Positions 1,047 through 36,108 of a DNA stretch of 44,889 nt are shown here, piece after piece (positions within the stretch are counted from its first letter, which is position 1; each line of letters starts with the position of its first letter). The notes beneath the pieces were generated by a model. It was not told the DNA's origin and searched no databases. It saw only the letters and a program-made list of their open reading frames with translations. A program made the position numbers and the translations under genes. The DNA is from Gemmatimonadota bacterium (GTDB lineage: Bacteria; Latescibacterota; UBA2968; UBA8231), in contig JAYOYH010000018.1 of the NCBI GenBank assembly GCA_038153405.1, forward strand, positions 45,980-90,868, read 5' to 3'.

Positions 1047-4000
1047 ATGATGAAGGGTAGCAAATGCTTACTACTTCTCGCCGCTTTTTTGGTGGGATTG
1101 GGCCTGTCGGCGCCTTCAGGTGCCCAGAACACTATTCATAGTGTTGAGGTCGCTTCCCCAGACAACGGCGCTTTTAAGGGTATCGGTCAAACCTTTCAGG
1201 TGAAGGCCAAGATGCTCCAAGTATCGCCCGCAGACAGTCTTGAAGTTATTATGTATCTCGTTGCGGGTAACGACTCAACGGTTGTTGCTGATACGCTCAA
1301 TCAGAGCGTAAACTGGGGCTCGCTGAATCAGTCCACAGTGATTCGTATTGCCAACAACACCCTGAACGATGGGACTGCCACTGGTGGCGCCAGAAGGCTC
1401 ATTGATGGTCAGACCAAAAAGCCAGTCACGAGTTTGGTCGCCGTTCAGCAGAAGTACGGTCGCGCTCGTGCCAGCAACGGCTTAGGTCGTGCAAACAAAT
1501 TGGGCGATGGCGACTCGGTTTCGGTATCGATCGTGAAGGGTCCTTCGGTTGATACCACTATGTTCACGTGGTGGGGTCGGATTGATGCCTCATCTGGTAC
1601 TGTCGCGGGTGTTCACGCCGCCGCTTTCTCAATTTCGGGCACCGATACATCAGCCGTCCAGTTGTCTACACACGCCAACACGGGGGCTCGCAAGGATGTC
1701 AAGTTTACGCTTGATGCAGACCGCCCGGCTGCTCCGGATTCGCTGTTGAAGCGTGCTGTTGTACCGTACAACGCCAACCCTTATACCATGTCCACTGACG
1801 TTCTCACGGGTTGCGTTACCGGGGACAGGATATACAAAAGTGTTACGGTGCAGGGTGACGCCCGTGATGTACTGGGTATTGGCGATTCAATTGTTGTCAG
1901 GACCAAACTGGGCGATGCCAAAGCGAACGGTGTGCTGGTATCTGACACGTTGAACGTTATTTTGGACGTCTTCGGTAAAGAGTTTACTTTCGACAAGGCG
2001 AATCGCCAAGTTGACACGTTGAAAGTAAAGGTCGCGCTGACAGAGGGGCTGTTTGGTGACTTATCAGCTCATGATTATGGCACTAGCAACACAGACACCA
2101 TCGGCGTGTTCTTTGTCGATAAGGCTGGGAACCGTTCGGGCGATCGCGCCACGGCTAGGTTGTCCGCTGATGGTTCAGCTTCGGGCGGCGTCTATCTCGA
2201 CGGTCCTGCGACTGGTATAACGGCTGGCGTAAACTTCCTGATTGATACCAAGGTGCCAGTGTTGGATTCGACGGGTAATGATACACTGCTCCCGACGTCC
2301 AACGATACCATCACGGACGGCTCCATTAACGACACCAAGACGCCGCTTGCATACGTCAACGATATAAATACGTTGGCGTTCAAACTGGAAGAGTCACTGG
2401 ATACGTTGACTGTGGGAATCGGTAATGCTTCGATTCGCGTTGTTAACGCTCCGGCTGGCACGCCCAATCAGCAGAGTGCTATCTTGCCTAGACAAGGCGC
2501 GACTAATCAAATCGACTTCACTCAGTTGGGTGACGCGAGCTCAACCACTAACAGCTTTCAGGTTGCCACTACGGCCGGTGTAACTACCGGTATTGGTGTT
2601 CAGAGCACCGTCTTTTGGCCATCCAGTGACAATGTCAAGAAAATAGCGACGGGGACGTACAGCGTTACTTTTCAAGGAAGAGATCTCGCTGGCAATCAAG
2701 GTCCTGTAGTGACGCGGACCAACGTATATGTTGACGTTGCAGACATTCAGCTGTCGCGTCTGTTCCCGACGAAAGCTGCGTTTGGTTCGGTTACAGCTGC
2801 TCGTGTGGATACGATAGAAGAAGAGACCTCTAAGCTCGTCTTCAGACTTTCTGAAGCGGCCGATAGTGTGCTGATCTCATATTTGGGTCTGGCAGGACCG
2901 GATGCGAATAAGACGCGCACTCGTAAGCTTTCGGGCACGCAGTTGACCAATACGGCGACTGAGCAACTTATCCCTGTGGATAGCTTGAAGACCGGCACAC
3001 AATACCGGTTGACAGTGCTCGCACGTGACTTGGCTGGTAACTTTACCCAAACTGCTCCGGACACCTTCCTCTATGACACGTCGTTCGTCGTGCCTGTGAT
3101 TAAGGCGTTCAGGGTTACTGCGGTGGCTAATCCCGCGTCAGCTTTTGGTACTCTGAAGGCGAATAGAGTAATTGCCGGTTCAGAAGTTACGCTCTCTATT
3201 ACGGCAAAAGCGAGCACCGACCTTGCAAATGGTCGTGACGCTGTTACCTACAAGAAAGCGGCTATCGTCAAGGTGAACGGTGGTTCGGGTGTCCAGCTTC
3301 TGACAAAGAACGCCGCTGGTGCTGCTGTCAGCACTGGTGTGACGGATATGGGCAACGGCCGTTTCCAACTCAATGACCTCGAATGGGTGACGGGAACGCG
3401 CACACTAACCTTCCGTGATACCTCTGCACTTGACACGTTGACTGTCACGATCGTCGACTCGGTGAGTGCTGGTGGTCCGTATGCAGGCAAGTTGGACTCG
3501 TCGATTCTAGTGACGCCTGAAGCATTCCATCACGTTATGCTCACCGCGCCAGACACGGTTGATGCGGGTGTGGAATTCTGGGTGGCCGTCAAGTTGAGCG
3601 ACAAGTTCCACAACACGCGCGTTTTCGACAACCGCTACGTGACGATCTCGGCTAATAAGCTGGGTGTCGAAGTGCCGACGGGTGATCAGTTGATCTCCAA
3701 AGGCATGGGCGGTTTCTGGGCGAGAGCGAACACGCCGGATAGCGGCCTGATGTTCACGGTTAAGGATGCTATCACGACTCAGGCTAACGGGTCGCTAAGC
3801 GGTCAGACGGAAGCCAATGAGGGCAATAACGCCATCCAAGGCATGTCGAAGGCTATTGTAGTCCGTGCTGCCGCCGTTGCGACGCCAGCTAAGCTGGATG
3901 GTCCCAATACGGTGGTTGCTGAAGACTACATGGGTGCCGACGGTAAGGGTGATCAGGGCGGTTTCGTCATGATGACCTGGGATCTGTCGACCGATCATGG

Positions 4001-5777
4001 CCAGGTGGACTCGTATCGCATCTACCGCGAGATCCAAGTTAAGCAGCGTCTGGCAACGGCCGCTGACTCGACGACCGCCGCCGTAGTGGCTTTGGCTACG
4101 CCGGAAGCGGCTATGGTGCCGTGGGCGAGAATCGATGCGGTGCCTGGCCAGACGATTGGTCGCGCTATCGTAGCGACCTTGGACAACGTAGCAACCAAGT
4201 GGGCTGTTGCTGCCGAGCGTGGCAACGAGTCGGCTGGTGCCAAGGCGGTCAACGCTGACGCCATGGATGCCTACGCGATGATGGCACAGACGATGCAGCA
4301 GAGCAAGCAGTTGGCCGCTCAGGCCGACCAGCCGGTCTTTGCCGCGCTGACGCCGGAAGCGCTCTCATTCGCTCAGCAGGGTATCGCTCCGCGTCTGAAG
4401 AGTGTGGATGAAGGCGTCGTGCTTTCGCTGCTGACGGAAACCGCAGACGCAGTGCGTGCTATCGACAACATCGCGCCGGCCGCCGTGCCCTACTTGCGCG
4501 CTCTGGATACTCCGGGCGATGCGGGTAGCAGCATTACGCTGACGTGGACGAAGTCGGGTGATGATCGCCTGCTGCCGCGCAGCGCCTCTAACGCGGTATC
4601 GTTGGGCTCGGTGTCGGATATGGTTGCCGGCGTCAAGGGCTACAACGTCTATCGCAAGGTCGGTGCTACGGGCGAGTTCACGCTGATCGGTAAGGCTGCC
4701 TCCGGCGAAACGTCGTTTGTTGATCAGACGGCTTTCAACGGTGTGCGCTACACCTACTCGGTGGCCCCGTATGACGAAGACAACGTAACGGAATCGGATG
4801 TGGAGCGGACGGCCATGGCCATTCGCAACGCAGTGGTCGACAAAAACGGCAAGGCGGTCTACGGTCTGTTTGGCGCAGACGCTCAGGTCGGTTTTGACGA
4901 CTTCTTTATCTTCGCTGACAACTTCGGCCTGACGGCAGCCGACGAGGCTTTCGAGCCGGCCTTCGACCTGGCGACTGGCGCCGGTGTTCCGAGGGTTGAC
5001 TTCGATGACTTCTTCGTCTTCGCCGACAACTTTGGCCGCGGTATCAATGCCGCCGGTAAAGTGGTTCCGATGTTGGCGGGTCTCAACGCCGATGCGCGTC
5101 TCTACCTCGAGACCGCCGCTGATCTGCCCCGCGTGGGTGAGGAAGTGGTCATCGACGTTGATCTGGCCGACTACGTTGAGTTGAAGGGTTATGGTCTGTC
5201 GGTTGTTTACGACGCCGAAAAGCTGGAGTATGTCCGCACGGTTACCGCGAACGCGCTGCTGGGTGAGGGCGAGTTGGCCACGCCGCGGGCTATTACGCAG
5301 ACAGAAGGTCAGATCGACATCGCTGCCTATGGCGAGACGGTCTCGGAAGGTGCTCTCGGTATGAGCGTAGTCTTCCGCACCAAGACGGAGATTGAGAACT
5401 CCTTCATCGAGGTGACCGATAGCCAGGTGCGCGATGGCAACTTTGCCGTCAACGCCGTGGCTCTGCCGGCTCCGGTGCAGATCCAGACGCGTCCGGAAGC
5501 GTTCGCCTTGGCGAACAACTATCCGAACCCGTTCAACCCGGCCACCACCATCAAGTATGCCTTGCCGGAAGCATCTCAGGTGCGCCTGGAGGTCTTCAAC
5601 GTAGTGGGTCAGGTTGTTCGGACCCTGGTTGATAACCACCAGAACGCGGGCCGCTATGTGGTCCAGTGGGATGCGACCAACGATCAGGGGCACAGCTTGT
5701 CCTCGGGTATTTACTTCTATCGCCTGCAGGCGGGAGGTGAGTTCCTCGAAGTCAAGAAGATGCTCTTGCTCAAATAA
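1047..5777 (+). CDS. Large secreted surface (S-layer-like) protein: signal peptide, Ig-like repeats, two FN3, dockerin-like paired EF-hand, cohesin-like domain, T9SS/FlgD-type C-terminal domain
   Basis: RBS GAGGAGG; signal peptide ending APSGA; DxAGN motifs (DKAGN, DLAGN x2); FDDFFxFADNFG x2; YPNPFNP...SGIYFYRL...KKMLLLK. Confidence 0.8.
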   Translation: MMKGSKCLLLLAAFLVGLGLSAPSGAQNTIHSVEVASPDNGAFKGIGQTFQVKAKMLQVSPADSLEVIMYLVAGNDSTVVADTLNQSVNWGSLNQSTVIRIANNTLNDGTATGGARRLIDGQTKKPVTSLVAVQQKYGRARASNGLGRANKLGDGDSVSVSIVKGPSVDTTMFTWWGRIDASSGTVAGVHAAAFSISGTDTSAVQLSTHANTGARKDVKFTLDADRPAAPDSLLKRAVVPYNANPYTMSTDVLTGCVTGDRIYKSVTVQGDARDVLGIGDSIVVRTKLGDAKANGVLVSDTLNVILDVFGKEFTFDKANRQVDTLKVKVALTEGLFGDLSAHDYGTSNTDTIGVFFVDKAGNRSGDRATARLSADGSASGGVYLDGPATGITAGVNFLIDTKVPVLDSTGNDTLLPTSNDTITDGSINDTKTPLAYVNDINTLAFKLEESLDTLTVGIGNASIRVVNAPAGTPNQQSAILPRQGATNQIDFTQLGDASSTTNSFQVATTAGVTTGIGVQSTVFWPSSDNVKKIATGTYSVTFQGRDLAGNQGPVVTRTNVYVDVADIQLSRLFPTKAAFGSVTAARVDTIEEETSKLVFRLSEAADSVLISYLGLAGPDANKTRTRKLSGTQLTNTATEQLIPVDSLKTGTQYRLTVLARDLAGNFTQTAPDTFLYDTSFVVPVIKAFRVTAVANPASAFGTLKANRVIAGSEVTLSITAKASTDLANGRDAVTYKKAAIVKVNGGSGVQLLTKNAAGAAVSTGVTDMGNGRFQLNDLEWVTGTRTLTFRDTSALDTLTVTIVDSVSAGGPYAGKLDSSILVTPEAFHHVMLTAPDTVDAGVEFWVAVKLSDKFHNTRVFDNRYVTISANKLGVEVPTGDQLISKGMGGFWARANTPDSGLMFTVKDAITTQANGSLSGQTEANEGNNAIQGMSKAIVVRAAAVATPAKLDGPNTVVAEDYMGADGKGDQGGFVMMTWDLSTDHGQVDSYRIYREIQVKQRLATAADSTTAAVVALATPEAAMVPWARIDAVPGQTIGRAIVATLDNVATKWAVAAERGNESAGAKAVNADAMDAYAMMAQTMQQSKQLAAQADQPVFAALTPEALSFAQQGIAPRLKSVDEGVVLSLLTETADAVRAIDNIAPAAVPYLRALDTPGDAGSSITLTWTKSGDDRLLPRSASNAVSLGSVSDMVAGVKGYNVYRKVGATGEFTLIGKAASGETSFVDQTAFNGVRYTYSVAPYDEDNVTESDVERTAMAIRNAVVDKNGKAVYGLFGADAQVGFDDFFIFADNFGLTAADEAFEPAFDLATGAGVPRVDFDDFFVFADNFGRGINAAGKVVPMLAGLNADARLYLETAADLPRVGEEVVIDVDLADYVELKGYGLSVVYDAEKLEYVRTVTANALLGEGELATPRAITQTEGQIDIAAYGETVSEGALGMSVVFRTKTEIENSFIEVTDSQVRDGNFAVNAVALPAPVQIQTRPEAFALANNYPNPFNPATTIKYALPEASQVRLEVFNVVGQVVRTLVDNHQNAGRYVVQWDATNDQGHSLSSGIYFYRLQAGGEFLEVKKMLLLK

Positions 5778-5799
5778 GCAAGACTGCAGCTAAGGGAAG

Positions 5800-5831
5800 T
5801 GGGATGGGATCTCTTAGGGGATCCCATCCCA
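5800..5831 (+). other. Intergenic 12-bp perfect stem-loop without an adjacent U-tract (stabiliser or partial terminator)
   Basis: TGGGATGGGATC (5800-5811) pairs with GATCCCATCCCA (5820-5831). Confidence 0.65.
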
Positions 5832-5889
5832 TATACCTTTGATGGTTTGCGTGTACATGGTGAATACTAACGAAATAGGAGAACCAAAC

Positions 5890-7443
5890 ATGCAGAACAG
5901 CGTGCGCAAGATTCTGACTCTTGCCATCGCCTCCCTGCTCGCGCTTAGTGGCGCTGCCATTGCCGGCAATAACGCAGGCGTCGTTGTCTCTTTGGATAGC
6001 GATGCCGTGGTGTCTGGAGCCGGTGCTGGTACCGCGATTGAAGTTGCTCTTTCGGCTTCGGGAATGGTCGGTGTAAAGCAGTTTGATGTCACCATCACCG
6101 TCTCACCTGCCGGTGCATTTGATTTGTCTGCTACCACGTTTGCACAGAATTCGGCCTTCACGATTTCACCGGGCGTTGAGTTTCCTGCAGACGGACAGGT
6201 CAAGAGCGGAGCGGCGAGCTTTGGCGCTGCTGTAGAGGGCGATGGAGGATTGGGGACCTTTACCCTCAAGACGTCGGACAGCTTTAGTGCAGATACGGAA
6301 GCCACCATCACGGTTACGCGCGTGTCTCTTGGTCCGTCTTCTACGGATCGCGACGTTTTTGAGAGCGATGCGTTGGGCTTGAGCGTTACGGTAAATCCAC
6401 CGGCTCCTCCAGTCATTGAGCCGGCTCTGACGGCCACATCCGATACGGATGTCAGCTTAGATTATTCGGAAGTGGGCTCGGGTGATGTCGATGACGACAG
6501 CGATGGCGAAATTGTTTTTGCCGTCAACTTCGTCGATGGCACGGGTGCTGCTGGTGCTGACCAGACAATCACTTGGGACATTACGAATAACGGTTCTGAG
6601 TCCGTCTTCCTCATCGCCGGTGATGGTGCCATTGAAATCAGTGCGGGTGAGAGCATTACGGTCGAAAGCGCTACGGATGCCGACGGTGATGCAGAGGCTC
6701 TGTTTGATGCAGAGGGCGATCGTGAAGCTGGTACGACGAGCTTGAGCATCATGGTTAGCACCTCGTCGACGAATTCGGACGGCGTCGCTCGCGACCTCTC
6801 TGCCGATTTCAGCGCGACGTGGGATGTGCCGGTTGCAGCCGAATTGGCCAGCTTCACTTCGCAAGTTACGGTTGATGACGATATCCTCCTGCAGTGGGGC
6901 GTTGCTTCGCAGTCCAATAATTTGGGCTGGGAAGTGTTTCGCAGCACGGATAGCCGCATCTTTACCAAGGTTAGCGAATTGGTGCTGGGCGACGGCAACA
7001 GCGACGAGTATAAGTCCTATAGTTTTGTGGACAGCAACTTGCCGCAGACCGACGTGCTCTACTACTATCTGAACCAGATTGATCTGGACGGAACGACCTC
7101 TCGCTCGCAGGTTATCGAGGTATTGCTCTCGCCGACGGCTGTCGCTGAGTTAGCACTGCCGATGGTGAATGCGCTGCGTCAGAACTTTCCCAATCCGTTC
7201 AATCCCGAGACCATGATCAGCTTTGATCTGAGCGGTGATCAGGTCGTCAGCCTGGCGATTTACGATATGACCGGACAGGTCATTCGCACGCTGGTTGACG
7301 CACAGCCGATGACTGCTGGAAATTTCAAGCAGCTGTGGGATGGTCGCAACGATAGCGGAGCTAAGGTTGGTAGCGGAGTGTATTTCTACCAGCTGCGTGC
7401 TGGCGATTTCATCGCTAAGAAGAAGATGACGTTGCTCCAGTAG
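5890..7443 (+). CDS. Secreted acidic protein: N-terminal cohesin-like domain, Pro linker, Ig-like domain, PVEL-type domain, T9SS/FlgD-type CTD
   Basis: Start moved to ATG 5890 (RBS AGGAGA; signal peptide MQNSVRKILTLAIASLLALSGAAIA); VPVAAELASF...LQWGVASQSNNLGWEVFRS; FPNPFNP...SGVYFYQL...KKMTLLQ. Confidence 0.8.
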   Translation: MQNSVRKILTLAIASLLALSGAAIAGNNAGVVVSLDSDAVVSGAGAGTAIEVALSASGMVGVKQFDVTITVSPAGAFDLSATTFAQNSAFTISPGVEFPADGQVKSGAASFGAAVEGDGGLGTFTLKTSDSFSADTEATITVTRVSLGPSSTDRDVFESDALGLSVTVNPPAPPVIEPALTATSDTDVSLDYSEVGSGDVDDDSDGEIVFAVNFVDGTGAAGADQTITWDITNNGSESVFLIAGDGAIEISAGESITVESATDADGDAEALFDAEGDREAGTTSLSIMVSTSSTNSDGVARDLSADFSATWDVPVAAELASFTSQVTVDDDILLQWGVASQSNNLGWEVFRSTDSRIFTKVSELVLGDGNSDEYKSYSFVDSNLPQTDVLYYYLNQIDLDGTTSRSQVIEVLLSPTAVAELALPMVNALRQNFPNPFNPETMISFDLSGDQVVSLAIYDMTGQVIRTLVDAQPMTAGNFKQLWDGRNDSGAKVGSGVYFYQLRAGDFIAKKKMTLLQ

Positions 7444-7466
7444 CATCTGTGAGAAACAGTGTTATT

Positions 7467-7502
7467 AGCCGCTGGATTCTTCGGAATCCAGCGGCTTTTT
7501 TT
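7467..7502 (+). terminator. Intrinsic terminator
   Basis: AGCCGCTGGATTC-TTCG-GAATCCAGCGGCT followed by a T run. Confidence 0.9.
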
Positions 7503-7593
7503 ATGCGCCTTTAGAAGCTGTAGTGGATCGGCTATCGCTTGTTCCCTCTTCAGTGGCCAATTATATTCGTTCTTAGTTAAGGAGACGAAAGGG

Positions 7594-7839
7594 TTGAAAG
7601 TAAAACTGCTTTTCTTTGCCTCGTGTCGCGATATAGTTGGTGAAAAAGAAATGGATTTTGAGGTGTCATCAAATGCGAACTTGGGCGAGCTTAAGCGGAT
7701 ATTAGGTGGGAGCTACCCCCGTTTGGGTGCGATGGGAGGGATCCTGTCTTTAGCGGTGAACGCGGAATATGCAAACGATGCAACCATATTGCAAGACGGG
7801 GATGAGATCGCCTTTATTCCCCCGGTAAGTGGGGGGTAA
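7594..7839 (+). CDS. moaD: Molybdopterin synthase sulfur carrier subunit
   Basis: TTG start at 7594 downstream of AAGGAG; KVKLLFFA...LAVNAEY...GDEIAFIPPVSGG with C-terminal GG; adjacent to moaE. Confidence 0.9.
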   Translation: MKVKLLFFASCRDIVGEKEMDFEVSSNANLGELKRILGGSYPRLGAMGGILSLAVNAEYANDATILQDGDEIAFIPPVSGG

Positions 7840-7842
7840 AAC

Positions 7843-8265: not shown

Positions 8266-8272
8266 GCGCGGT

Positions 8273-16450: not shown

Positions 16451-18136
16451 ATGAGTGGCGGGGCAATGCCGTGGGTTGGGTGGATATGGATAGCGACGGC
16501 CGTAATCGGCATTGAACAGGCCGCCGGGTCTGCGCGCGGCGACGTATGGGTTTTTCTGCGCGACAAAAAGGACGAACACGGTCGAGTTATCGCGTGGAAC
16601 GATAGCGGCAAAGAGCTGTCGGCCACGGAGTGGGACTTGCCCATTCGAGATGACTACGTGCGGCGCGTGCGCGCTACGGGAGCCCAACTGCGCACCCGTT
16701 CACTCTGGCTCAATGCGATAAGCGTTCGCGCTACGCCGGACCAGCAGCGGCGTCTGCGCGCGCTGGACTTTGTCGAGTCGCTGCGACGCGTGCGCACATT
16801 GGCCAAACCCGTACCCGCTGCGGAGTCGGCATTGCCTTCTGCGCGCCGGGCTCAGCAAGATGACTACGGGGTGGCTTTTGAACAATTCGCACAGGCCGAG
16901 GTGATCCCGCTGCACCAGATGGGATACAGGGGAGCCGGCGTTCGCATTGCCGTTCTTGACAACGGGTTTCACTATACCCATCACAGGGCATTCGCGCGGC
17001 TCAATATCGTTGCTCAGCGCGACTTTATCAACGAAGACGAGGTCGTCAGCGACGAGATCGGTCAGCCGCGCACCGGCGACGAAACCCGCACCGCCCAGAA
17101 CCTGCACGGCGCACAGGTGCTGTCTATTATGGCGGCCAACGATCCTGGCCGCTTTATCGGCGTCGCGCCCGATGCAGAATACATACTAGCTAAAACAGAA
17201 GAAAATGCGACGGAACTTCCCGTCGAAGAGGATCGCTGGATTGCCGGCTTAGAATGGTCGGTCGGTCAGGGAGCCGATGTCGTCAATAGCTCTCTGGGTT
17301 ACAACATATGGGATACCGGCGATAGCTATGAATATGCCGACCTCGATGGGCGCACGGCGCTGACGTCGGTTGCCGCGGCGATGGCTGCGCAGCGCGGCGT
17401 CGTCGTAGTCGTTGCTGCGGGTAACGAAGCCGACACGCCCTGGCACTATATAACGGCTCCTGCTGATGCAGATGGCGTCATCGCCGTCGGATCGGTCGAC
17501 GTGGCGATGGTAGATGGTCGAACGCCAACGATTGCCAGCACGAGTTCGCGTGGACCGACCGCGGATGGGCGCATCAAACCCGACGTCGTCGCACCGGGAC
17601 AGGGCGTGGTCGTTGCCGATGTGCGCGGCGGCGACTACCGGCGCTCGAGCGGAACGTCGTTTGCCGCACCCGTAGTGAGCGGCATTTGCGCGCTGCTCTT
17701 ACAGATCCATCCAGATTGGCAGCCAAAAGACGTGCTGGCTGCACTGCAGGCGACCGCATTGGATCTCGGTGAGGCCGGAGCGGATACAGTATACGGTTGG
17801 GGGCATGTCCAGGCGCTGGCCGCTAGCGGTTTGCGCCTAGCTCCACCCGAGCAGGCGGCGGCGCTTGCTCCATTTCCCAATCCCGCCCGGGGCGAGAGGG
17901 TGTACTTTCCTCTGCTGGTCGATCGGCGCGAAGAAGTCCAGTTGAGCGTTTTTGACGCGGCGGGCAACGTGGTATTTAGCCGCGTGTGGGATATGCTTTC
18001 GGGCACCTATACGGAAAAGAGCAATGCGCCCCGATGGAATATCGCTGCCGATGTGGCCAATGGGATGTATTTTTACCGGCTGTATTCTACCAGCGTCGAT
18101 AAGTCTGGTTCGCTGGCTATTGTCAGGAGTCGATAG
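16451..18136 (+). CDS. Secreted subtilisin-family (S8) serine protease with C-terminal sorting-like domain
   Basis: Triad VLDNG / HGAQV / GTSFAAP; oxyanion AAGNE; SSRGPTADGRIKPDV; C-terminal PFPNP...ANGMYFYRL. Confidence 0.9.
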   Translation: MSGGAMPWVGWIWIATAVIGIEQAAGSARGDVWVFLRDKKDEHGRVIAWNDSGKELSATEWDLPIRDDYVRRVRATGAQLRTRSLWLNAISVRATPDQQRRLRALDFVESLRRVRTLAKPVPAAESALPSARRAQQDDYGVAFEQFAQAEVIPLHQMGYRGAGVRIAVLDNGFHYTHHRAFARLNIVAQRDFINEDEVVSDEIGQPRTGDETRTAQNLHGAQVLSIMAANDPGRFIGVAPDAEYILAKTEENATELPVEEDRWIAGLEWSVGQGADVVNSSLGYNIWDTGDSYEYADLDGRTALTSVAAAMAAQRGVVVVVAAGNEADTPWHYITAPADADGVIAVGSVDVAMVDGRTPTIASTSSRGPTADGRIKPDVVAPGQGVVVADVRGGDYRRSSGTSFAAPVVSGICALLLQIHPDWQPKDVLAALQATALDLGEAGADTVYGWGHVQALAASGLRLAPPEQAAALAPFPNPARGERVYFPLLVDRREEVQLSVFDAAGNVVFSRVWDMLSGTYTEKSNAPRWNIAADVANGMYFYRLYSTSVDKSGSLAIVRSR

Positions 18137-21717: not shown

Positions 21718-22260
21718 ATGAAGTGCGAGATTTGCCACAGCAACGATGCGACGACGGCGTATACGCATATAGTTGACGACGCGAAGAAAACGCTTCTGCT
21801 CTGTGCCAACTGCGTTCCTAAAAGCGAGCGGAGCGAGCGGGCGGAGCCGTCCGAGGCACAGGCTCAGCAACACGTGCCGGTGCTCGTCAAAAAGGTGAAA
21901 GTGGAGTTTGGTACGGCACCGTCTCCGGAGACCTCCGCGGCGGGGCCCTGTGATGGATGTGGGATGACCTACGAGCAGTTTAAAAAGGTGGGGCGACTCG
22001 GGTGCCATCGCTGTTATGCGGTATTTGGAGCACAGCTAGAGCGCCTGTTAAAGCGCATACACGGCGCCGATGCGCACTGTGGCAAGGGGCGCATTGACGA
22101 ACGTGCGGCACCGCGTCCTGCAGAGGCGTTGGATGAGTTGCGCAGCGAACTGAGCAAGGCGGTCGAACGCGAAGATTTTGAGCGCGCAGCGCAAATCCGC
22201 GATCGCATCCGCACGATCGAGGCAGAGGGGCAACGCCCCGTTGGTGAGGCCGAGCGTTGA
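21718..22260 (+). CDS. mcsA: Protein-arginine kinase activator McsA
   Basis: Four CXXC motifs (CEIC, CANC, CDGC, CHRC), GRLGC, RIHG, C-terminal UVR domain EDFERAAQIRDRI. Confidence 0.93.
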   Translation: MKCEICHSNDATTAYTHIVDDAKKTLLLCANCVPKSERSERAEPSEAQAQQHVPVLVKKVKVEFGTAPSPETSAAGPCDGCGMTYEQFKKVGRLGCHRCYAVFGAQLERLLKRIHGADAHCGKGRIDERAAPRPAEALDELRSELSKAVEREDFERAAQIRDRIRTIEAEGQRPVGEAER

Positions 22261-23333
22261 ATATCGGCGAACTCGTTGGCAATCGCGCCCAGTGGCTCAG
22301 CGGCGAAGCGGACGGCGATGGAATTGTTGTCAGCTGTCGCGCACGTTTAGCGCGGAATATATCGACCGCACCGTTCGCGCCCAAGGCGACCGTAGACGAT
22401 CAGGAGCGGATTATCGAGCGCGTCTTGAATGCCGCCCAGCATAGCCGTCACATGTGCAGTGCTTCGTTTTTCAAAATGAATGCGCTGCAGGAGAGCGAGC
22501 GGCTTCTGCTGGTCGAGCGCCATTTGGTCAGTCCGGCACTGGCCGAGAGCAAGGGGCAGCGCGGGGTGCTCTTTAACCGAGACGAGGCGCTGAGCATTAT
22601 GATTAACGAAGAGGACCACTTGCGCCTGCAGGCGATTCTGCCTGGTCTACAGGCGCAGGGCGCGTGGAACGCCGTGGATGCGCTCGACGACGATCTGGGT
22701 TCTTCGCTGCCGTATGCCCACACCGATCGATGGGGTTTTCTGACGGCGTGTCCGACCAATGTGGGAACGGGTTTACGCGTCTCCGTGCTGATTCACCTGC
22801 CGGCGCTGGTGCTGACAGAAGATATGGAACGCGTAACGCGCGGCTTGATGAAGATGGCGTTTACCGTGCGCGGTTTTTACGGCGAGGGAACGAATCCGGT
22901 AGGCAATTTATTTCAAATATCAAACCAGTCGACGCTCGGGGTTGAAGAGGGCAAAATCGTCGAAATGCTCACGACGATTACACAGCAAATCATAGCGTGT
23001 GAAAAAGACGCGCAGGACGCGCTCTTAAAAGAGGCGCGCTCGCAGGTCGAAGACAAGATTTGGCGCGCGTACGGGCTGCTCTCGCACGCGCGCGTCTTGA
23101 GCAGTCAGGAATTTATGAACCTGCTTTCCGCCGTGCGCTTGGGGCGCAGTTTGGGTTTGGTAAAGACGGTGGATTCCAGCTTTATGAACCACCTGATGAT
23201 CATAACCCAGCCGTCGCATTTGCAGATGGAGCGCGGGGGCGAACTGGCTCCGGAAGAGCGCGATATTTACCGCGCCGAACGGGTGCGCTCGCGCTTTGCG
23301 ACCCGGCCGGCAGACGGGGCTGGGTTACCTTGA
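22257..23333 (+). CDS. mcsB: Protein-arginine kinase McsB
   Basis: RARLARN, LVERHLVS, NEEDHLR, CPTNVGTG, RGFYGEG, QISNQ; TTG start overlaps the mcsA stop. Confidence 0.95.
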   Translation: MNIGELVGNRAQWLSGEADGDGIVVSCRARLARNISTAPFAPKATVDDQERIIERVLNAAQHSRHMCSASFFKMNALQESERLLLVERHLVSPALAESKGQRGVLFNRDEALSIMINEEDHLRLQAILPGLQAQGAWNAVDALDDDLGSSLPYAHTDRWGFLTACPTNVGTGLRVSVLIHLPALVLTEDMERVTRGLMKMAFTVRGFYGEGTNPVGNLFQISNQSTLGVEEGKIVEMLTTITQQIIACEKDAQDALLKEARSQVEDKIWRAYGLLSHARVLSSQEFMNLLSAVRLGRSLGLVKTVDSSFMNHLMIITQPSHLQMERGGELAPEERDIYRAERVRSRFATRPADGAGLP

Positions 23334-23358
23334 CAACGCTACGCCCTTTTGGTAGTTT
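23330..23358 (+). promoter_or_regulatory. Internal sigma70-type promoter for clpC
   Basis: TTGACA (23330-23335), 17 bp, TAGTTT (23353-23358) with extended -10 TG. Confidence 0.6.
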
Positions 23359-23398
23359 CAGAAAAGGCCCACCGGGGGCTAAATCATTCCTAACACAT

Positions 23399-23413
23399 TG
23401 ATAATTATTATAA
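23399..23413. promoter_or_regulatory. Fur/PerR-like 7-1-7 operator
   Basis: TGATAATTATTATAA: one mismatch to the Fur box TGATAATnATTATCA and one to the Per box TTATAATnATTATAA. Confidence 0.55.
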
Positions 23414-23463
23414 ATAAAGCATACGCGGTAGTCGGTTAAAGATGAGCCGCGGAGGTCTATTTC

Positions 23464-25929
23464 ATGAATAATATGTTTACCGATGGCGTCAAACGCGTCA
23501 TGCAGTTGGCCCGAGAAGAATCCGCGCGCTTGGGGCATAACTACATTGGCACTGAACACCTGTTATTGGGCATCATAAAGGACGGCAAAGGCAAGGCCGT
23601 TACGGTGCTGACCAACCTGGGGTTAAGCCTAGAGACGGTCAAGCAATCGGTCGAGGATTACGTGGCCACTTCGGGGGGTACGATGACCATTGGCGAGGTG
23701 CCGTTCACGCCGCGCGCCAAACAGATCTTAGAGGTCGCGGCCAACGAAGCCAAAGAAATGAAGACGCAGTTCGTCGACGTCGAGCACCTGCTGCTCGCCT
23801 TGTTGAAGGACAAGGAAGGCGTCGCAGCGCAAATTCTCGCCGCATTTGGCGTCGACTATAAGACCGCGATGGAAGAGACGTTAGCCGTGTTGGAGGGCAA
23901 AACGACGGGCCGCAAGGAAAAGGGCAAGAAGAGCAAGACGCCGTTTCTCGATCACTTTGGTCGCGACCTGACGCAGCTGGCGCGCGAGGGCAAGCTCGAT
24001 CCGGTCATCGGTCGGCAGAAGGAAATCGAGCGCGTTACGCAGATCCTCAGCCGCCGCAAGAAAAACAACCCCATCCTCATCGGCGACCCCGGCGTCGGCA
24101 AGACGGCCATCGTCGAAGGGCTCGCTCAGCGCATTATAGAGAAGCGCGTTCCGCAAATCTTGCTCGACAAGCGCTTGGTGACGCTCGATATGGGAGGCGT
24201 TGTCGCCGGCACCAAATACCGCGGTCAGTTTGAAGAGCGCATCAAGGCGGTGATGAACGAGCTACAGCAAAATACCGAGGTCATCATCTTTATCGACGAG
24301 CTGCACACGATTGTCGGTGCGGGCAGTGCCGAGGGCACGCTCGATGCATCCAATATGTTTAAGCCGGCGCTGGCACGCGGCGAATTGCAGTGCATTGGCG
24401 CCACTACGCTCGATGAATACCGCAAGCACATCGAGAAGGACGGTGCGCTGGAGCGCCGCTTTCAAAACATTATGGTCGACCCGCCGTCAGTCGAGGATAC
24501 CATTGAAATTCTCAAGGGGTTGCGCACCAGCTACGAGGCCCATCACCACGTCGAATTTCCCGACCATGTGATTTCCTACGTCGTGCGTCAGTCGGATCGC
24601 TATATCAGCGACCGCTACTTACCCGACAAGGCCATCGATGTCCTCGATGAGACGGGTTCGCGCGTGCATTTGGCGCGCCTTAGTCCTCCCGAACAAATCA
24701 GCAAATTGGAGGGCGAAATCCAGGAGATAAATCGCCAAAAGAACGAAGCAGCGGAGCGGCAGGATTTTGAAGAGGCCGTCATTCTGCGCGACAAGGCACT
24801 GCAGCTGGGCGAAGAGCTGCAGCGCAGCCGTCAGGAGTGGGAAGAGAAGGTCCGCGACGAGGTCGTGCAGGTCAGCGAAGACAATATCGCCGAAGTCATA
24901 GCTAGCATGACGGGTATTCCCATAACGCGACTGGCCAAGAGCGAGAGCGATCGGCTGCTGGCCATGGAGAGCGAGCTCAAAAAGAAGATCATTGGTCAAG
25001 AGCAGGCGGTCACGGCCATATCGCGTGCCATTCGCCGCAGCAGGGCCGGCCTGCAGGATCCGCGCCGTCCCATCGGTTCGTTTATCTTTCTCGGGCCGAC
25101 CGGCGTTGGTAAGACGGAACTGGCCAAGCGTCTGGCAGAGTTTCTCTTTGACGATGAAGAGGCGCTGATCTCCGTCGACATGTCCGAATACATGGAGAAG
25201 TTCGCCGTTTCGCGCCTGATTGGCGCGCCTCCGGGCTACGTCGGCTTTGACGAGGGAGGCCAGCTAACGGAAAAGGTGCGCCGCCGTCCCTATTCGGTCA
25301 TATTGCTCGACGAGATCGAAAAGGCCCATCCAGACGTATTCAATATTCTGCTGCAAATCCTCGACGAAGGGCGGCTGACTGACAGCACTGGACGCAAGGT
25401 TGACTTTAGCAACACCGTCATGATCATGACCTCTAATATCGGCAGCCGCGACGTCGGTACGGGCGGTGTGCTCGGCTTCCAAAAATCCGATGCCGATACG
25501 CTGCACGAGCTGATGGAGGGCAAGATAAACGATGCGCTGAAAAAGACCTTCAATCCGGAATTTATCAACCGCGTCGACGATGCGATTATCTTTCATGCGC
25601 TGACCAAAGAGCATATTAACGAGATCATCGACATCACGCTCAACGAGTTTAAAAAGCGCCTAGAAAACCAGGACATCGGTCTGCGCATCACGCCGGGAGC
25701 CAAGAACCTAATGGCCGATAAGGGTTTTGATATGGCGTTCGGCGCGCGCTATCTCAAGCGCACGGTGCAGAAGATGTTGGAAGATCCGCTGGCAGAAGAA
25801 ATTCTCAACGGTCACTTTGCTGCCGGTAGTCGAATCCGCGTTACCAAGAAGGGCGAAGAGCTCGTTTTTGACGAAGAGCGCGGCGATTCCGAAGAAAAAG
25901 TAGAAGAAAAGAAGGAAACTGCCGGTTAA
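23464..25929 (+). CDS. clpC: ATP-dependent Clp protease ATPase ClpC
   Basis: Double Clp-N repeat; GDPGVGKT and GPTGVGKT Walker A motifs; UVR middle domain; LGF ClpP-docking loop; follows mcsAB. Confidence 0.97.
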
Positions 25930-28398: not shown

Positions 28399-28511
28399 CG
28401 TGTGGTGCATCGCGTTGCTGTGCCAGTAAAACGCTGTATTTCTAAATGGCCGCCTGCGCCTTATATTATCCACGCACGTATAGATTGGCGATTTATATAA
28501 GAGGAGTCCGT

Positions 28512-29513: not shown

Positions 29514-29706
29514 GCGGTTTTAGCTCTCCATATAGATCGCATTTACATCCAACGGATGCTTTATGCATCGTGTTCCCGATTTTTTTTTGGGGCGCACGGC
29601 TGCATAAAACAGCCTATCTCAATGACTTGCACAACGTCGATGCAATCGTTTGTAGCAGTCTACGATTTGCATTGTTCAGTTCAAGTTTTCCACAGGATAG
29701 GATCGG

Positions 29707-31587: not shown

Positions 31588-31634
31588 GGCTGTGGGCTTG
31601 CCGATATGTTAATGATCGCACGCGTGTCCGGTGG

Positions 31635-31672
31635 CAAACGAGGGGTTCGGCCTTAGCCGAACCCCTCGTTTG
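31635..31672. terminator. Bidirectional terminator between convergent genes
   Basis: 17-bp perfect stem CAAACGAGGGGTTCGGC-CTTA-GCCGAACCCCTCGTTTG. Confidence 0.85.
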
Positions 31673-31692
31673 TTGCGGAACGCTCCCCCGAG

Positions 31693-34600
31693 CTATTTGA
31701 TTAGGGTCATTTTGCGCGTATGGGTGAAGCTGGGCGTAACGAGTCGGTAAAAGTAGATACCGCTGGCGACGCCGATTCCATGCGCATCTAAGCCATCCCA
31801 GGCGATTCGGTAGAATCCCGCCGCCTGTAGCGGATGAGAGACCAGTTTGCGCACTTGTTGCCCCAGAATATCATATACTACGAGCTGGACGGGTGCGTCC
31901 TCGGGCAGCGCGTATTCAATGCTCGTCGATGGGTTGAATGGGTTGGGATAGTTGGTGTGCAGGGCATAAGTTTCGGGGCGCAGCGCGGTGGAATGCAACT
32001 GCACGGCCGAACGCACGCCCAGAGTCGGCGATGCGGTGTAGGCCTCGCGCAAGTCGAGCCCTACGGCGTTTGCGTCGCCTAAGCGCGTGAAGCGCAGTTG
32101 GGCCAATAGGCCCTGTCCCGATACGGTAGATCCATCTGTCAGGCCGTTGCCGACGACGACTTGTCCGGGCTTTTCCCAGAATACGGAAAAGAGGGGCGCA
32201 TTACCGCCCTTGCTGCCCAGCAAATGACCGGGGCCGGGAAGAGCTTCCTCAAAGCGCAGAAGGGTTGGATCGTATTCGATTACCGCGCCAAATGCGCTGA
32301 GGTCTTCCACCTGCTTGCCCCAAAGGCGCACCGTCAGCTGGTTGCTTTCTGAGCGGGTGCCACCGCGCGCCTCGAGAGAAAAAACCGATTTTTCATCGTT
32401 GGCCTGCGGAACTGCCCAGCGCTTGCCGCTCAGGGTCTTGCCGAAGTTGTCGACGAAGATAAAGAAATCGTTGAAGTCTACGCTGCCGCCGCCGTCCAGA
32501 TCGTAGGCTGCCGCCGCGCCCGTCGCGCTCTGGCCAAAAAAGTCGACGAAGAGAAAAAAGTCGTCGAATGTGACGCCGCCGTCGCCGTTAAAGTCGCCAG
32601 CCAGTGCCGATGGGTCGGCGACGACAAACGCTTCCGCTTGGGCAAACTCGCTGGCCAAATCGCCTTCGACCGCGCGCACTCTCCAATAATAGGTCGTGCC
32701 CTCTTCCAGATCGCGATCGATGGTCCATCCCGTTTGGCCGGTCCCTATATCGCCGGATCCATCTACCAAGTCCGATACGGAAGCTGCAGCGGTGGAAAAG
32801 TCCGGTGCCGCGGAGATCTGTATCTCGTAGGTCAGCGTGCCGCCGGCGTTAAATGGGCTCGCGTTGGTAAAGAAGAACGTGGGCCTCAGATAGTCGCCGC
32901 TGCGCCCCAATTCGCTTGGAGCAGATGGTGCCGACGAAGAATTGGGCGTGGCCGATACGGTGTTGGAAGGAGCGCTTTCGTTTGGCGGGTTCTCCGTGTC
33001 GACAGAAGTCACGTAGTACTGATAGGTGGTGTCATTGCCGACATTGGGGTCGGTATAGGTTGTCTTTTGCACGCCGGAGTTGAGCAGGGCAAATGCGCTG
33101 CCCGCCGCGCTGCGATAGACGTTGAAGCCGTTGAGATCGAGGGCGACCTCAGCTTGCCAGGACAGTACGACCTGTCGCGTGCCCTCTGTAGCGCTGAGGC
33201 TTGTAGGTATAGCTGGTGCCGTAGTATCGGCCGTGCTCAGCGTAGTAAACTCGAGGGTATCGCTCTCGGTAGAGGGGTTGCCCGCGCGGTCGGTTGAGCC
33301 AACGATGTAATAGTAGGTCTGGCCCGGCGTCAGGTTGGTCAGCGTGATGGTGTGGTCCGTGACGTCTTCTGTAGCGCCAATATTGAAATTAAAAGCTAGA
33401 CGGTCGGTGCCAAATTCGACGAAGCTATCGGACAATTCGTCGGTAGTCCAGCCGATAATGGCCAGCGAGTCGGAGACGGAAGACTGGATGGAGGATATAA
33501 CGGGCGAACTCAGGTCCGGTGTCGCATCGGTAGTGAACGATAGCGTATCGCTTTTGGTCGGGCCGTTATTGCTCAAGTCAGACGAAGCGACCACATAGTA
33601 ATACGTCTGGTTAGCGCTGAGGTTTGTAAGTGTTACCTCGTGCGTAGTGGCCGATGTGGACAGCGTGCGCACCGTGCCGAGGTTGTTCGTCGTGCCGAAT
33701 TCGACTTCGGCCGTGGACTCCTCGTCGGTGGTCCAGCGCAGGGTTGCACTAGTGTCATTTTTATAGGCGATAGAGGGTGCCGCCGTGATTTCCGGTGCGG
33801 TAATGTCCACCTCTGGATTTGTCGTAAAGGTCGCCGTAGCGCTCTGTGTCGCGCCGTTGCCCGCCGCGTCCGTAGACCCAACCACGTAGCTATAGGTAGA
33901 GCCCGGCTCTAAGTCGCTGAGAACGATTTTGTGCGACGTCTGGTTGTCTCCAGATGTCTCGCTATTGTCGAGACTCGCAGAGCCAAATTGCACGTCGCTA
34001 TCGGCGGGTTCGTCTGTCGTCCATTCGATAACGGCCGAGTCGTGTGTTTGCGAGGTGACAGAGGGGCCGGATAGGATAACGGGAAACTGCGTATCGGCCG
34101 TGGCATCCGTGGTAAAACTACCCGACCCACCGGGCGGCTGTAGCACTTTGGCGCGCTTGAGTGCCGATGAGTTGTTGGGGTCGAATGCGACTTTCTTGCC
34201 GTTGGGACCGGTTGCTTCGATTCGGTAGCCGTAGGTCGTGCTGAGATCCAAGCCGCTGACTGTGATGATGTGCTCGCGCGTAAAGCGCGCGCTGCCGTTG
34301 GGGTTGAGGTTGGCGAACTCAAACTCATCGGATGAGCCCAGCGTGGCGTTTGTTCCTACGGAACCGGTGAAGACGCTGCCCGAGGTTGGAATATCCGTCG
34401 ACCAGCGCACGATAGCCACTTTGCCGCGCACGACGACCTGCGGTCCGGAAACGATGACCGGCGCAAGCGTGTCGCTCGATGCAGAAGTGCGGAAGTGGAA
34501 GTCGCGGTTCCATTGCCGGTTGCCGCGCGGGTCGGTGTTGAGCGTATCTACCTCGTTAAAAGCGGTGATGCGGAAGCGGTAACGCGTTGCCGAAGACAGT

Positions 34601-36108
34601 TCGCTAAGGGCAATATCGTGCACCGTCAACAGCTCTCCAGACGAGGAGGTGTCCGTGTAGGCGATGGGGATTTCGCGCAGCGGCGTATCGTCATCTAACG
34701 CGGCGTATTCGAGGCGAATCGACGCTGGCTGGTTGAGCTGTATGCGCAGGCGCGCGCCGTCGGATCCGACCACGTGGAAAGGTGGTCTTGTGAAGCGCAG
34801 GCGCCGGTCTATGGAGCGCGTGTGCAGGAAATCCGGACGCGTTGTCTGCACCTCCTGTTCGGTCATGCCCTCGGCCAAAAAGCTTTCTGCGTTAGTCAGG
34901 CGAGAGCCCACGCTGAAGTTGTAGCGCGTATTGGGCTGCAGGTCGCGAATCTCGACGATATGCACCTGGGTGCCGTCTTCGTCATTGATTATTTCAGCCG
35001 CTGTTCCTTCGCCGCCAGTATTAAAGGTGTAGCGCGTATCGGCCGGTCGGTTGGTAAACCAGCGAATCACTGCAGAAAACGGCGTCGACTGCACTTCGAA
35101 ACGCTCTAAGAAGAGCGGGCGTTTGTCGACGCCCAAGCGCGTTCTGAAAAAACCTTTAAACGGCGGGCTAGGGCGACCGTTGAGGTCATACGAGCGCGCC
35201 GTGAACTCGTACTCCGTTTTGGGCTTGAGATTGCTTGCAATTACCGTGTGGCGGCGGTTGCCTAACGCATCGTCGAGTTTGCGAACGGCATTAATGAAGT
35301 CAGTTGTGATGACAAAGTCCTCAAACCGAGGTAAGGACTGCAGAGCCATCCGTATGCGCTCGTCATCGAGCGTTTCCCGCGGTATGATGCCGCGCTCGAG
35401 TAGGGCCTTGAGTCCGTCGAGCATACGCGGCGTCACGCGCTCGGCCAGTGGGTTGGTAAAGGTGCGCCAAAGCGTGTCGCCGACGGCGCGAACTCGCACG
35501 GTATCCGTAAGGCCCGGGTCTTTGGTGCGCCAGTTTAGGGTGACGACGTCGCGTCCGCTAATGTGTTCTAAATCGAAGATGGCATTGGAGAAAAACTTTA
35601 CCAACTTGATGCCAAATTGGTTGATGCCAAAACGCCGCTCGTCAAAGTCGCTCGAACTGGCACCGACGCGCACCTTGGTTATGGAGAGCATGGCACCCTG
35701 TTCGGAAATGGGGCCTACGATATCGAAATTGATGGTATAGAGTACGCCCGTCCCCGTAGAGGCAGCAGCGGAATTATTTCCGGACACGGCAAATCCCTCG
35801 ATGACGAACCCGTCGTCTCGCGTGACGGGTGCCTTGGGCAAAGCCAGTTGTGGCGGGATAAATGGGCCGGGTGCGATTTGTACGTTGCCTATAATGCGCG
35901 GATCGTAGGCGATCTCAATTTCACTCTGGCGTCCGGCCTCGACAAACTCAACGCCGATGGCCGCTTTTATGCGCTGTCCGACGGAAGGATCGCGAATGTC
36001 GCGCGGATTGAATTGCACCCTGAAGGCTTCATTTGTGCCTGCCCACAGCGGCGAAGCGCTCAGCGCTAGCAGGGTGCAGACGAGCAAACAGCGGCCGTTG
36101 ATGCCCAT
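31693..36108 (-). CDS. Secreted scaffoldin-like protein: signal peptide, N-terminal cohesin-like domain, ~9 FN3 repeats, dockerin-like paired EF-hand, cohesin-like domain, T9SS/FlgD-type CTD
   Basis: Repeated WxTDE...H...L..L...TY.Y; GDFNGDGGVTFDDFF and DLDGGGSVDFNDFF; YDPTLLRF...GQGLLAQLRF; YPNPFNP...SGIYFYRL...RKMTLIK. Confidence 0.82.
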   Translation of the reverse strand: MGINGRCLLVCTLLALSASPLWAGTNEAFRVQFNPRDIRDPSVGQRIKAAIGVEFVEAGRQSEIEIAYDPRIIGNVQIAPGPFIPPQLALPKAPVTRDDGFVIEGFAVSGNNSAAASTGTGVLYTINFDIVGPISEQGAMLSITKVRVGASSSDFDERRFGINQFGIKLVKFFSNAIFDLEHISGRDVVTLNWRTKDPGLTDTVRVRAVGDTLWRTFTNPLAERVTPRMLDGLKALLERGIIPRETLDDERIRMALQSLPRFEDFVITTDFINAVRKLDDALGNRRHTVIASNLKPKTEYEFTARSYDLNGRPSPPFKGFFRTRLGVDKRPLFLERFEVQSTPFSAVIRWFTNRPADTRYTFNTGGEGTAAEIINDEDGTQVHIVEIRDLQPNTRYNFSVGSRLTNAESFLAEGMTEQEVQTTRPDFLHTRSIDRRLRFTRPPFHVVGSDGARLRIQLNQPASIRLEYAALDDDTPLREIPIAYTDTSSSGELLTVHDIALSELSSATRYRFRITAFNEVDTLNTDPRGNRQWNRDFHFRTSASSDTLAPVIVSGPQVVVRGKVAIVRWSTDIPTSGSVFTGSVGTNATLGSSDEFEFANLNPNGSARFTREHIITVSGLDLSTTYGYRIEATGPNGKKVAFDPNNSSALKRAKVLQPPGGSGSFTTDATADTQFPVILSGPSVTSQTHDSAVIEWTTDEPADSDVQFGSASLDNSETSGDNQTSHKIVLSDLEPGSTYSYVVGSTDAAGNGATQSATATFTTNPEVDITAPEITAAPSIAYKNDTSATLRWTTDEESTAEVEFGTTNNLGTVRTLSTSATTHEVTLTNLSANQTYYYVVASSDLSNNGPTKSDTLSFTTDATPDLSSPVISSIQSSVSDSLAIIGWTTDELSDSFVEFGTDRLAFNFNIGATEDVTDHTITLTNLTPGQTYYYIVGSTDRAGNPSTESDTLEFTTLSTADTTAPAIPTSLSATEGTRQVVLSWQAEVALDLNGFNVYRSAAGSAFALLNSGVQKTTYTDPNVGNDTTYQYYVTSVDTENPPNESAPSNTVSATPNSSSAPSAPSELGRSGDYLRPTFFFTNASPFNAGGTLTYEIQISAAPDFSTAAASVSDLVDGSGDIGTGQTGWTIDRDLEEGTTYYWRVRAVEGDLASEFAQAEAFVVADPSALAGDFNGDGGVTFDDFFLFVDFFGQSATGAAAAYDLDGGGSVDFNDFFIFVDNFGKTLSGKRWAVPQANDEKSVFSLEARGGTRSESNQLTVRLWGKQVEDLSAFGAVIEYDPTLLRFEEALPGPGHLLGSKGGNAPLFSVFWEKPGQVVVGNGLTDGSTVSGQGLLAQLRFTRLGDANAVGLDLREAYTASPTLGVRSAVQLHSTALRPETYALHTNYPNPFNPSTSIEYALPEDAPVQLVVYDILGQQVRKLVSHPLQAAGFYRIAWDGLDAHGIGVASGIYFYRLVTPSFTHTRKMTLIK

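Follow-up and report, generated by a model that had tools for sequence, protein, structure and literature searches.

A stretch of 44,889 nucleotides from an uncultured aquatic Latescibacterota bacterium (assembly GCA_038153405.1, contig JAYOYH010000018.1, positions 45,980 to 90,868; hereafter the window) carries three genes whose products combine cohesin or dockerin modules with outer-membrane export tags, namely the C-terminal sorting domains (CTDs) of a type IX secretion system (T9SS). The three proteins are P1 (1576 aa; 1047..5777, + strand), P2 (517 aa; 5890..7443, + strand), and P3 (1471 aa; 31693..36108, - strand). These genes belong to a real, conserved, non-cellulosomal cohesin-dockerin system that rides on T9SS cargo and most likely provides the surface coat of this Latescibacterota class, and P1 and P2 are likely the main protein coat of the class. 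The arrangement that we favor, with a confidence that stops slightly short of even, is an anchor-and-cargo coat, in which the dockerin of P1 would be capped within its own chain, freed by a cut at a lysine motif, and docked on the cohesin of P2.

Domain composition of the three proteins

P1 consists of a signal peptide, a variable Ig-like body, two FN3 domains, a dockerin, a lysine-containing linker, a cohesin, and a CTD; P2 of a signal peptide, an N-terminal cohesin, an Ig domain, an FN3 domain, a PT/AV linker, and a CTD; and P3 of a signal peptide, an N-terminal cohesin, FN3 repeats, a dockerin, a lysine-containing linker, a cohesin, and a CTD. The first-pass annotation had described secreted proteins with cohesin-like, dockerin-like, and sorting modules; both its open reading frames (ORFs) and these assignments proved real, the folds being settled by profiles and structure models, and P1 and P3 end in exactly the dockerin-like pair, cohesin, and CTD that it listed. 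In the hidden Markov model check that it had proposed, single sequences stayed under the Pfam cohesin and dockerin cut-offs (E-values of 0.003, 0.009, and 0.0008). The folds are nonetheless those of cohesins (beta-sandwiches of approximately 140 residues) and dockerins: in profile and model comparisons, solved structures were matched by each of the four cohesins and by the two dockerins. A combined dockerin and cohesin profile matched the NagJ cohesin of Clostridium perfringens (E 4e-11) and the type II dockerin 2y3n_B (E 1e-10). The model of the P1 C-terminal cohesin (5088..5489, + strand) aligns with 2vo8 at Z 16.4 (rmsd 2.1 Å, 130 aligned residues), and that of the P2 N-terminal domain (5965..6402, + strand) at Z 12.5 (rmsd 3.0 Å, 131 aligned residues). 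The N-terminal domain of P3 (35584..36039, - strand) is homologous to that of P2 (hhalign, 97.7%), its profile matches type II cohesins (E 3e-11), and Pfam Cohesin was matched in 12 of its 19 members, so that the N-terminal cohesins ascribed to P2 and P3 also stand. The pattern FDDFFxFxDxFG, said to occur twice per dockerin, is found in both repeats of P1 (FDDFFIFADNFG and FDDFFVFADNFG) and once in P3 (FDDFFLFVDFFG), the second P3 copy (FNDFFIFVDNFG) being one letter off. No catalytic family was matched in P1, P2, or P3, as the annotation had stated.

The dockerin of P1 (residues 1268-1333; 4848..5045, + strand) follows an FN3 domain (residues 1139-1260; 4461..4826, + strand; FN3 fold matches at Z 13) and is formed by a duplicated loop-helix repeat with helices at model residues 152-160 and 188-196. 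Its calcium loops are degenerate: among the canonical acidic residues, only Asp1285 and Asp1307 (both in 120/120 aligned rows) and Asp1321 (117/120) are kept, and the first calcium ligands of loop 1 are missing. The loops of the P3 dockerin (32428..32613, - strand), by contrast, are canonical and of the DxNxDG type. For the P1 dockerin, the calcium dependence that had been suggested is doubtful. The span 1047..36108 does not form one unit, as had been implied, since the 24 kb from P2 to P3 are occupied by housekeeping genes (tsaD, ftsK, lolA, prfB, clpC, bamA, fabZ, and others). Close homologs with names mostly carry Latescibacterota labels, and some are labeled Gemmatimonadetes or Handelsmanbacteria.

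All three tails exceed the TIGR04183 cut-off of 23 bits (35.1, 34.8, and 36.8 bits), including the CTDs of P1 (5496..5774, + strand) and P3 (31696..31971, - strand), and the CTD of P2 resembles the PorU CTD in structure (Z 10). The genome encodes SprA, three PorV-like matches, and, directly upstream of PorV, a PorU that scores 665 bits (cut-off, 420); together with the tails, these genes support the suggested T9SS-like nature of the export machinery. A second PorU-like C25 protein of 1858 aa (L188:701-6277, contig C48) scored 294 bits with NF033707 and 256 bits with NF052324, both under the cut-off. Approximately 107 proteins of the genome carry a CTD-like domain. Among 104 proteins with a terminal CTD, many bear a TPNGDG-type tail, which we take to be CHU_C-like, and are arranged in tandem clusters (e.g., contigs C3, C5, C10, and C35).

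Conservation and expression of the P1-P2 pair

The N-terminal part of P1 was matched in 36 of 60 relatives, and P2 in 57. Loci were taken from 20 of these 36 genomes with P1, selected so as to have long contigs and to span the families, and P1 and P2 are adjacent in all 20 (18 in the first comparison and the last two by further searches). The order of the mostly single-copy pair is kept over four families while the flanks change. Within the family, the P1 body is variable (30-42% identity), whereas the C-terminal modules are conserved (55-77%). The body is Ig-like by weak matches only, the leads from the ESM Atlas being Ig-like and all under 0.9. P1 is acidic and almost cysteine-free, and it contains 21 D(S/T)(AILVMT) sequons where 8.5 would be expected, which places it sixth of 1313; P2 does not share this enrichment. 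The motif is the O-glycosylation sequon of Bacteroidota. By analogy with the surface proteins TfsA and TfsB, the acidity, scant cysteine, variable body, conserved tail, and sequon enrichment may be taken as marks of a major coat protein, and they make P1 a candidate major surface-coat glycoprotein.

The RNA data come from 22 listed sequencing runs, of which 20 hold the stretch, 19 of these being on record as RNA, from 14 studies; seven runs with shares under 0.2 were left out. One run from each of four metatranscriptome studies has near-identical contigs over approximately positions 900-7460, with depths of 25-47, 72-120, 60-88, and 7-68, compared with 4-8, 7-15, 5-10, and 4-11 for near-identical contigs of the EF-Tu/ribosomal cluster in the same runs. 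These contig depths, several times those of the EF-Tu/ribosomal cluster, are a hint, and no more, of very high P1-P2 expression. In three runs a contig crosses the P1-P2 junction, a bridging contig proving no single transcript, and the absent RNA cover over window positions 8-20 kb is no evidence of silence. A sigma-70-like promoter (TTGACA-17-TATTAT; 769..797, + strand; 11 of 12 consensus positions) lies approximately 250 nt 5' of P1, and contig cover begins at position 892 in run X1, giving a long leader. The P1-P2 intergenic region contains a stable hairpin (5800..5831, + strand; z -5.5) with no T-run, a possible mRNA-stability or attenuation element, and P2 is followed by an intrinsic terminator composed of a 13-pair stem and a T-run (7467..7496, + strand), shortly before which RNA contigs stop at 7459 in runs X2 and X6. 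The promoter, hairpin, and terminator count as signs of an operon. By their export tags, conserved pairing, and RNA contig depth, with the sequon enrichment in P1, P1 and P2 look like major surface proteins.

The dockerin-cohesin-CTD cassette and its lysine motif

The dockerin, cohesin, and CTD at the end of P1 and P3 form a cassette with which eight or more proteins of this genome terminate, their dockerins falling into two classes. The cassette was found in 53 of 56 genomes of the class and, elsewhere in the phylum, in 6 of 24. The dockerin and cohesin are separated by 17-29 residues, stand immediately before the CTD in 122 of the 150 best representatives, and are grafted onto unrelated cargoes (Ig, cadherin-like, and propeller). 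AlphaFold2 predicted residues 1132-1576 of P1 (FN3-dockerin-cohesin-CTD) as a compact unit with pLDDT 93.5 and pTM 0.85, against 0.52 for the four domains of P2. Since the four modules of the P1 model fold as one unit, the dockerin is probably packed against the cohesin of its own chain, and this cohesin probably against the CTD, a reading drawn from overall compactness; a single-chain model places any dockerin-cohesin contact in cis and stays compatible with domain swapping. Mean-field covariation over 120 rows (effective 86), mostly noise, gave a weak and noisy signal between Phe1286/Phe1322 of the P1 dockerin and Ala1426 of the cohesin. Complex predictions of the P2 cohesin with the P1 FN3-dockerin scored 0.22 and 0.21 against a mark of 0.32, but the controls did not fold, and these scores count neither for nor against docking. 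Two fold searches of the cassette returned no dockerin chain among their matches, and Foldseek on whole multi-domain models returned generic Ig/FN3 chains.

The second dockerin class (GD...DN.I...D, then P.[YF]K) also precedes a cohesin or cohesin-CTD (L045:5370-16810, L050:1410-7632, L046:8195-12280, and L047:813-4916), and the two classes may differ in specificity. In one relative (G096), 21 cassette matches were listed, many of them in frames of 1880-1945 aa and approximately 1430 aa scattered over one chromosome, which suggests an expanded, possibly variable surface-protein family.

The linker between dockerin and cohesin contains a small-small-Lys motif, represented by AAGK with Lys1338 in P1 (5058..5060, + strand) and by SGKR with Lys1229 in P3 (32422..32424, - strand). 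The Lys1338 position is lysine in 112 of 120 rows and arginine in 5, against a background of 3%. The motif is also present in proteins without dockerin or cohesin and in FN3 loops within P1 (Lys1066; 4242..4244, + strand; a candidate processing site seen by eye in orthologous stretches) and P3 (KRAK; 34147..34158, - strand; lysine in 25 of 25 loci, the window's own included). The PorU protease of Porphyromonas gingivalis cuts X/(GSA)(VLI), e.g., PT/ATE in HBP35, and attaches anionic LPS, as reported (PMC4560394; PMC5445135). A site that fits this consensus, PT/AV (T/AV at 7135..7143, + strand), stands just before the CTD of P2, in the only low-confidence, flexible linker of the P2 model. In P1-type cassettes, the lysine motif stands upstream of the cohesin and not at the cohesin-CTD junction, where the two domains are joined without a PorU-type linker; only 4 of 120 rows have a PorU-type site beyond the final cohesin strand. 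The broad PorU pattern often arises by chance, with 41-77 of 120 rows showing it in 30-residue control windows and 34 of 120 in the linker from dockerin to cohesin, so that no more than its depletion where cohesin and CTD meet was used.

The two motifs replace each other. Among P2 homologs, 37 short forms have the T/AV-type site and 81 long forms the lysine motif, the two being mutually exclusive and in register (17 and 16 residues before PNPF, respectively). Among 38 cohesin-free CTD ORFs of this genome, a few of them spurious, 21 have T/AV, 6 the lysine motif, and none both. From these patterns we infer that the lysine motif is a processing site and that the cohesin and CTD together would be an extended, removable signal; the 1858-aa PorU-like protein is a speculative candidate for the enzyme. 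In P2 orthologs of other families (L038-L040 and L033-L036), GAR or GGR, an arginine small-small-basic version, replaces T/AV before the CTD.

Were the CTD alone removed, each chain would supply its own anchor: its cohesin would be attached to the surface and, after any cut at the lysine, hold the cargo non-covalently, or the dockerin-cohesin clasp would act as a rigid stalk. P1 and P2 would then be abundant surface proteins with minor cross-links between them. We regard this as unlikely, though it has the compact cis model, the frequent position of dockerin-cohesin directly before the CTD, and the faint covariation on its side. The cohesin-CTD junction has neither a PorU-type site nor a flexible linker, however, and a self-supplied anchor leaves unexplained the conserved P2 cohesin as well as the dockerin-only proteins and cohesin lipoproteins described below.

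Anchor, extender, and partners in trans

P2 is 517 aa long from its ATG and 534 aa from an upstream TTG, and the database protein P0121 (517 aa) is 100% identical. The N-terminal cohesin profile matched 15 of 18 P2 orthologs, most of the 15 being training sequences. Its PorU-type site makes P2 a candidate anchor, likely held by a glycolipid as in P. gingivalis.

P3 lies 24 kb from the pair, was matched in 32 of 60 relatives with this query, and has average codon bias. It consists mostly of FN3 repeats, a feature absent from the first-pass annotation, and its N-terminal cohesin and its dockerin are approximately 1000 residues apart, the C-terminal cohesin following at 31981..32391 (- strand). 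By its module order, P3 is the only one of the three proteins with a true head-to-tail layout and a candidate extender or adaptor. The annotation had extended this layout to all two-module proteins, which would be linked in trans, head to tail, as a lattice or sheath that depends on calcium. In its favor, dockerin and cohesin are both real, P1 appears abundant and coat-like, the distance between the P3 modules suits such a joint, and domain swapping is compatible with the single-chain model. Even so, we find this model improbable: the linker of 17-29 residues permits cis binding and the predicted unit is intramolecular and compact, the same cassette occurs on many unrelated cargoes with a lysine motif between its modules, one plug and one socket per subunit would give chains and no two-dimensional sheet, the calcium loops of P1 are degenerate, and P3 was matched, with this query, in only about half of the relatives. 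For the terminal cassette, the role of a head-to-tail link between subunits is therefore not supported; a lattice is possible but is not the reading that we favor.

Modules that are not paired within one chain are found elsewhere. Dockerins without a cohesin and CTD are encoded, for example, by two adjacent genes on contig C72 and by genes on contigs C50, C1, and C13, and cohesins without a dockerin by P2 and its paralog on contig C5. Proteins of the C72 family are composed of FN3, often a GSVIV-type domain, and a dockerin followed by the stop codon, and examination of 25 loci yielded 23 of them; one C72 dockerin-only gene was present in RNA contigs of two runs. The C72 pair itself (L042:2309-4192 and 4404-5459) lies, by eye, between dnaG-like and rho-like genes and has P1-type FN3 domains and a GSVIV/GSIII motif, which we take to resemble a SEA-domain autocleavage site; the pair has no CTD, so its route to the surface is unexplained. 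Relatives encode proteins of approximately 200 aa with a lipoprotein-type signal and a single cohesin of the N-terminal type (L182:446-1045, - strand; L183:1406-2020, + strand), the former gene standing divergently beside a P3 paralog. No such protein was found in this genome. On their sequence features, these are candidate lipid anchors, and the N-terminal cohesins would be natural sockets for the orphan dockerins. Because dockerin-only proteins and cohesin-only anchors are conserved, partners in trans must exist.

Ig, cadherin-like, NHL, FG-GAP, and ASH domains are found in other proteins of the genome that have the cassette or a dockerin. These domains, and the construction of P2 as a chain of beta domains, would also fit the display of adhesins or a capsule, with cohesin-dockerin links exposing binding domains on extended, non-crystalline filaments or in a loose matrix. 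We give this alternative little credence, as a near-universal and mostly single-copy P1-P2 pair with apparently very high transcription suits a structural coat better.

A cellulosome-like enzyme complex for polymer degradation is very improbable and largely refuted for this genome. Latescibacteria have been described with cellulosome-affiliated enzymes (PMC7081726, citing Farag, 2017), and a CTD-tailed scaffoldin has been proposed for Cloacimonadota (PMC8542988). In this 93%-complete genome, however, no multi-cohesin scaffoldin was found, with at most two cohesins per protein, and no catalytic glycoside hydrolase family was matched in the three window proteins and 16 other module-bearing or neighboring proteins; among these 19, an FGE-sulfatase-like domain occurs in one and a weak CBM96 in another. 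The term non-cellulosomal used in the annotation is thus appropriate.

Proposed assembly

We propose that the signal peptides direct Sec export, followed by folding in the periplasm, where the dockerin, lysine linker, cohesin, and CTD would form one unit, as in the AlphaFold2 prediction, and block premature binding of partners. Export would proceed via SprA and PorV, whose genes are present. At the surface, PorU would cut P2 at PT/AV and anchor it, as extrapolated from P. gingivalis, and P1, P3, and the other cassette proteins would be cut at the small-small-Lys motif, possibly, and speculatively, by the second PorU-like enzyme, the cohesin and CTD thereby making up a sorting unit that is extended and can be removed. 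Dockerins freed in this way, as well as the dockerin-only proteins, could then plug into the N-terminal cohesins of P2, its paralog, and P3, and in relatives also into the cohesin lipoprotein. The outcome would be an anchor-and-cargo coat, which P3 could lengthen as chains. The scheme in its full form, with a cohesin that caps its own dockerin in the periplasm, a second C25 protease that cuts at small-small-Lys, and armed subunits assembling together with CTD-less dockerin proteins on anchored cohesins into an S-layer, is tentative and on balance doubtful. That P1 and P2 are major surface proteins is common to the anchor-and-cargo, self-supplied anchor, and head-to-tail models, and its likelihood exceeds that of each model taken singly.

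Several observations weigh against the proposed anchor-and-cargo coat. GldM and GldN were not found by their models, the controls being silent too and K and L not searched. Several acidic ligands are absent from the P1 calcium loops, the single-chain prediction forces the dockerin-cohesin contact into cis, and 3 of 18 P2 orthologs were missed by the cohesin profile at the N-terminal domain. As to cleavage, a lysine in second place beyond the cut does not fit the PorU consensus as known. The linker is modeled as rather well ordered, with pLDDT 81 even in the weakest block, and the lysine may be structural; the long P2 forms, 81 in number, all belong to a single clade, so their exclusivity is possibly a single event. 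As to expression, the depth of contigs is no basis for ranking genes, the runs had been selected by means of this stretch, and codon bias is modest, in the top 10% or so (P1 ranks 276 and P2 ranks 337 of 3371, with a rough reference set).

If the proposed coat is correct, it would be a first concrete model of the envelope in a widespread class without cultured members, and it would take cohesin-dockerin pairs beyond enzyme scaffolds into structural coats. The T9SS would gain a self-capping step and a second cleavage motif, in a lineage in which no PorM/PorN motor has been detected. The modules are small and expressible, and both cis versus trans binding and the lysine cut are testable without culture.

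Genomic surroundings

The window contains no tRNA or Rfam match. Its start (3-494, + strand) encodes the C-terminal part of a YfhO-family membrane protein, which could glycosylate surface proteins; a homolog is located upstream of P1 at 7 of the 20 loci. A subtilase (S8) with a weak CTD-like tail (16451-18136, + strand) adjoins lolA and ftsK and is a possible maturation protease. An operon of the McsA-McsB (arginine kinase)-ClpC type (21718-25929, + strand) is followed by bamA-skp-fabZ, in a diderm. A transposase with HTH_38 and an integrase core (38607-39632, + strand), presumably IS30-like, lies just upstream of a lower-GC glycosyltransferase cluster (39778-44889).

Comparison with known systems

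Non-cellulosomal cohesins and dockerins are already known; the predicted self-capping, the candidate lysine site, and the expression data are new. No paper on a cohesin-dockerin, S-layer, or T9SS system in Latescibacterota was found in the open literature, subscription papers and supplements being outside the scope; the main text of Youssef et al. (2015) contains no cohesin, dockerin, or type IX, and that of PMC11557425 does not mention Latescibacterota.

The best cohesin matches in sequence and fold are the cohesins of glycoside hydrolases of C. perfringens (NagJ, PDB 2ozn/2o4e/2w1n; sialidase, 2vo8), which likewise have single cohesins beside FN3. Those proteins form enzyme complexes of a Gram-positive bacterium, whereas the proteins described here have no catalytic domain, are T9SS-tagged, and join dockerin and cohesin in one chain. 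The best dockerin matches come from the type II anchoring of clostridial cellulosomes (X-DocII of CipA on SdbA/OlpB; Doc48A of B. cellulosolvens), with a beta module before the dockerin in both cases. As there, a large subunit would, in our proposal, be held on a smaller, cell-anchored cohesin protein, but here there is no multi-cohesin scaffoldin, CBM3, or enzyme, the anchor is of the CTD/PorU or lipoprotein type and not SLH, and the dockerin is followed by a cohesin of its own. Among other genome-inferred, non-clostridial cohesin-dockerin systems, Cloacimonadota 'Ca. Stygibacter' (PMC8542988) has a CTD-tailed scaffoldin and ANME archaea (PMC9012536) have S-layer-dockerin fusions; both are interpreted as displaying enzymes or transporters on multi-cohesin scaffolds, and the consulted parts of these two papers describe no dockerin-Lys-cohesin-CTD cassette or two-gene coat. 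A close parallel to the P1-P2 pair in layout is offered by the S-layer glycoproteins TfsA and TfsB of Tannerella forsythia, which are also encoded by adjacent genes (Tanf_03370/03375) and are CTD-bearing, T9SS-exported surface proteins, reported as glycosylated (PMC5445135). P1 and P2 differ from them in being of unequal size and in carrying cohesin and dockerin modules, and the likeness lies in gene layout and sorting tags.

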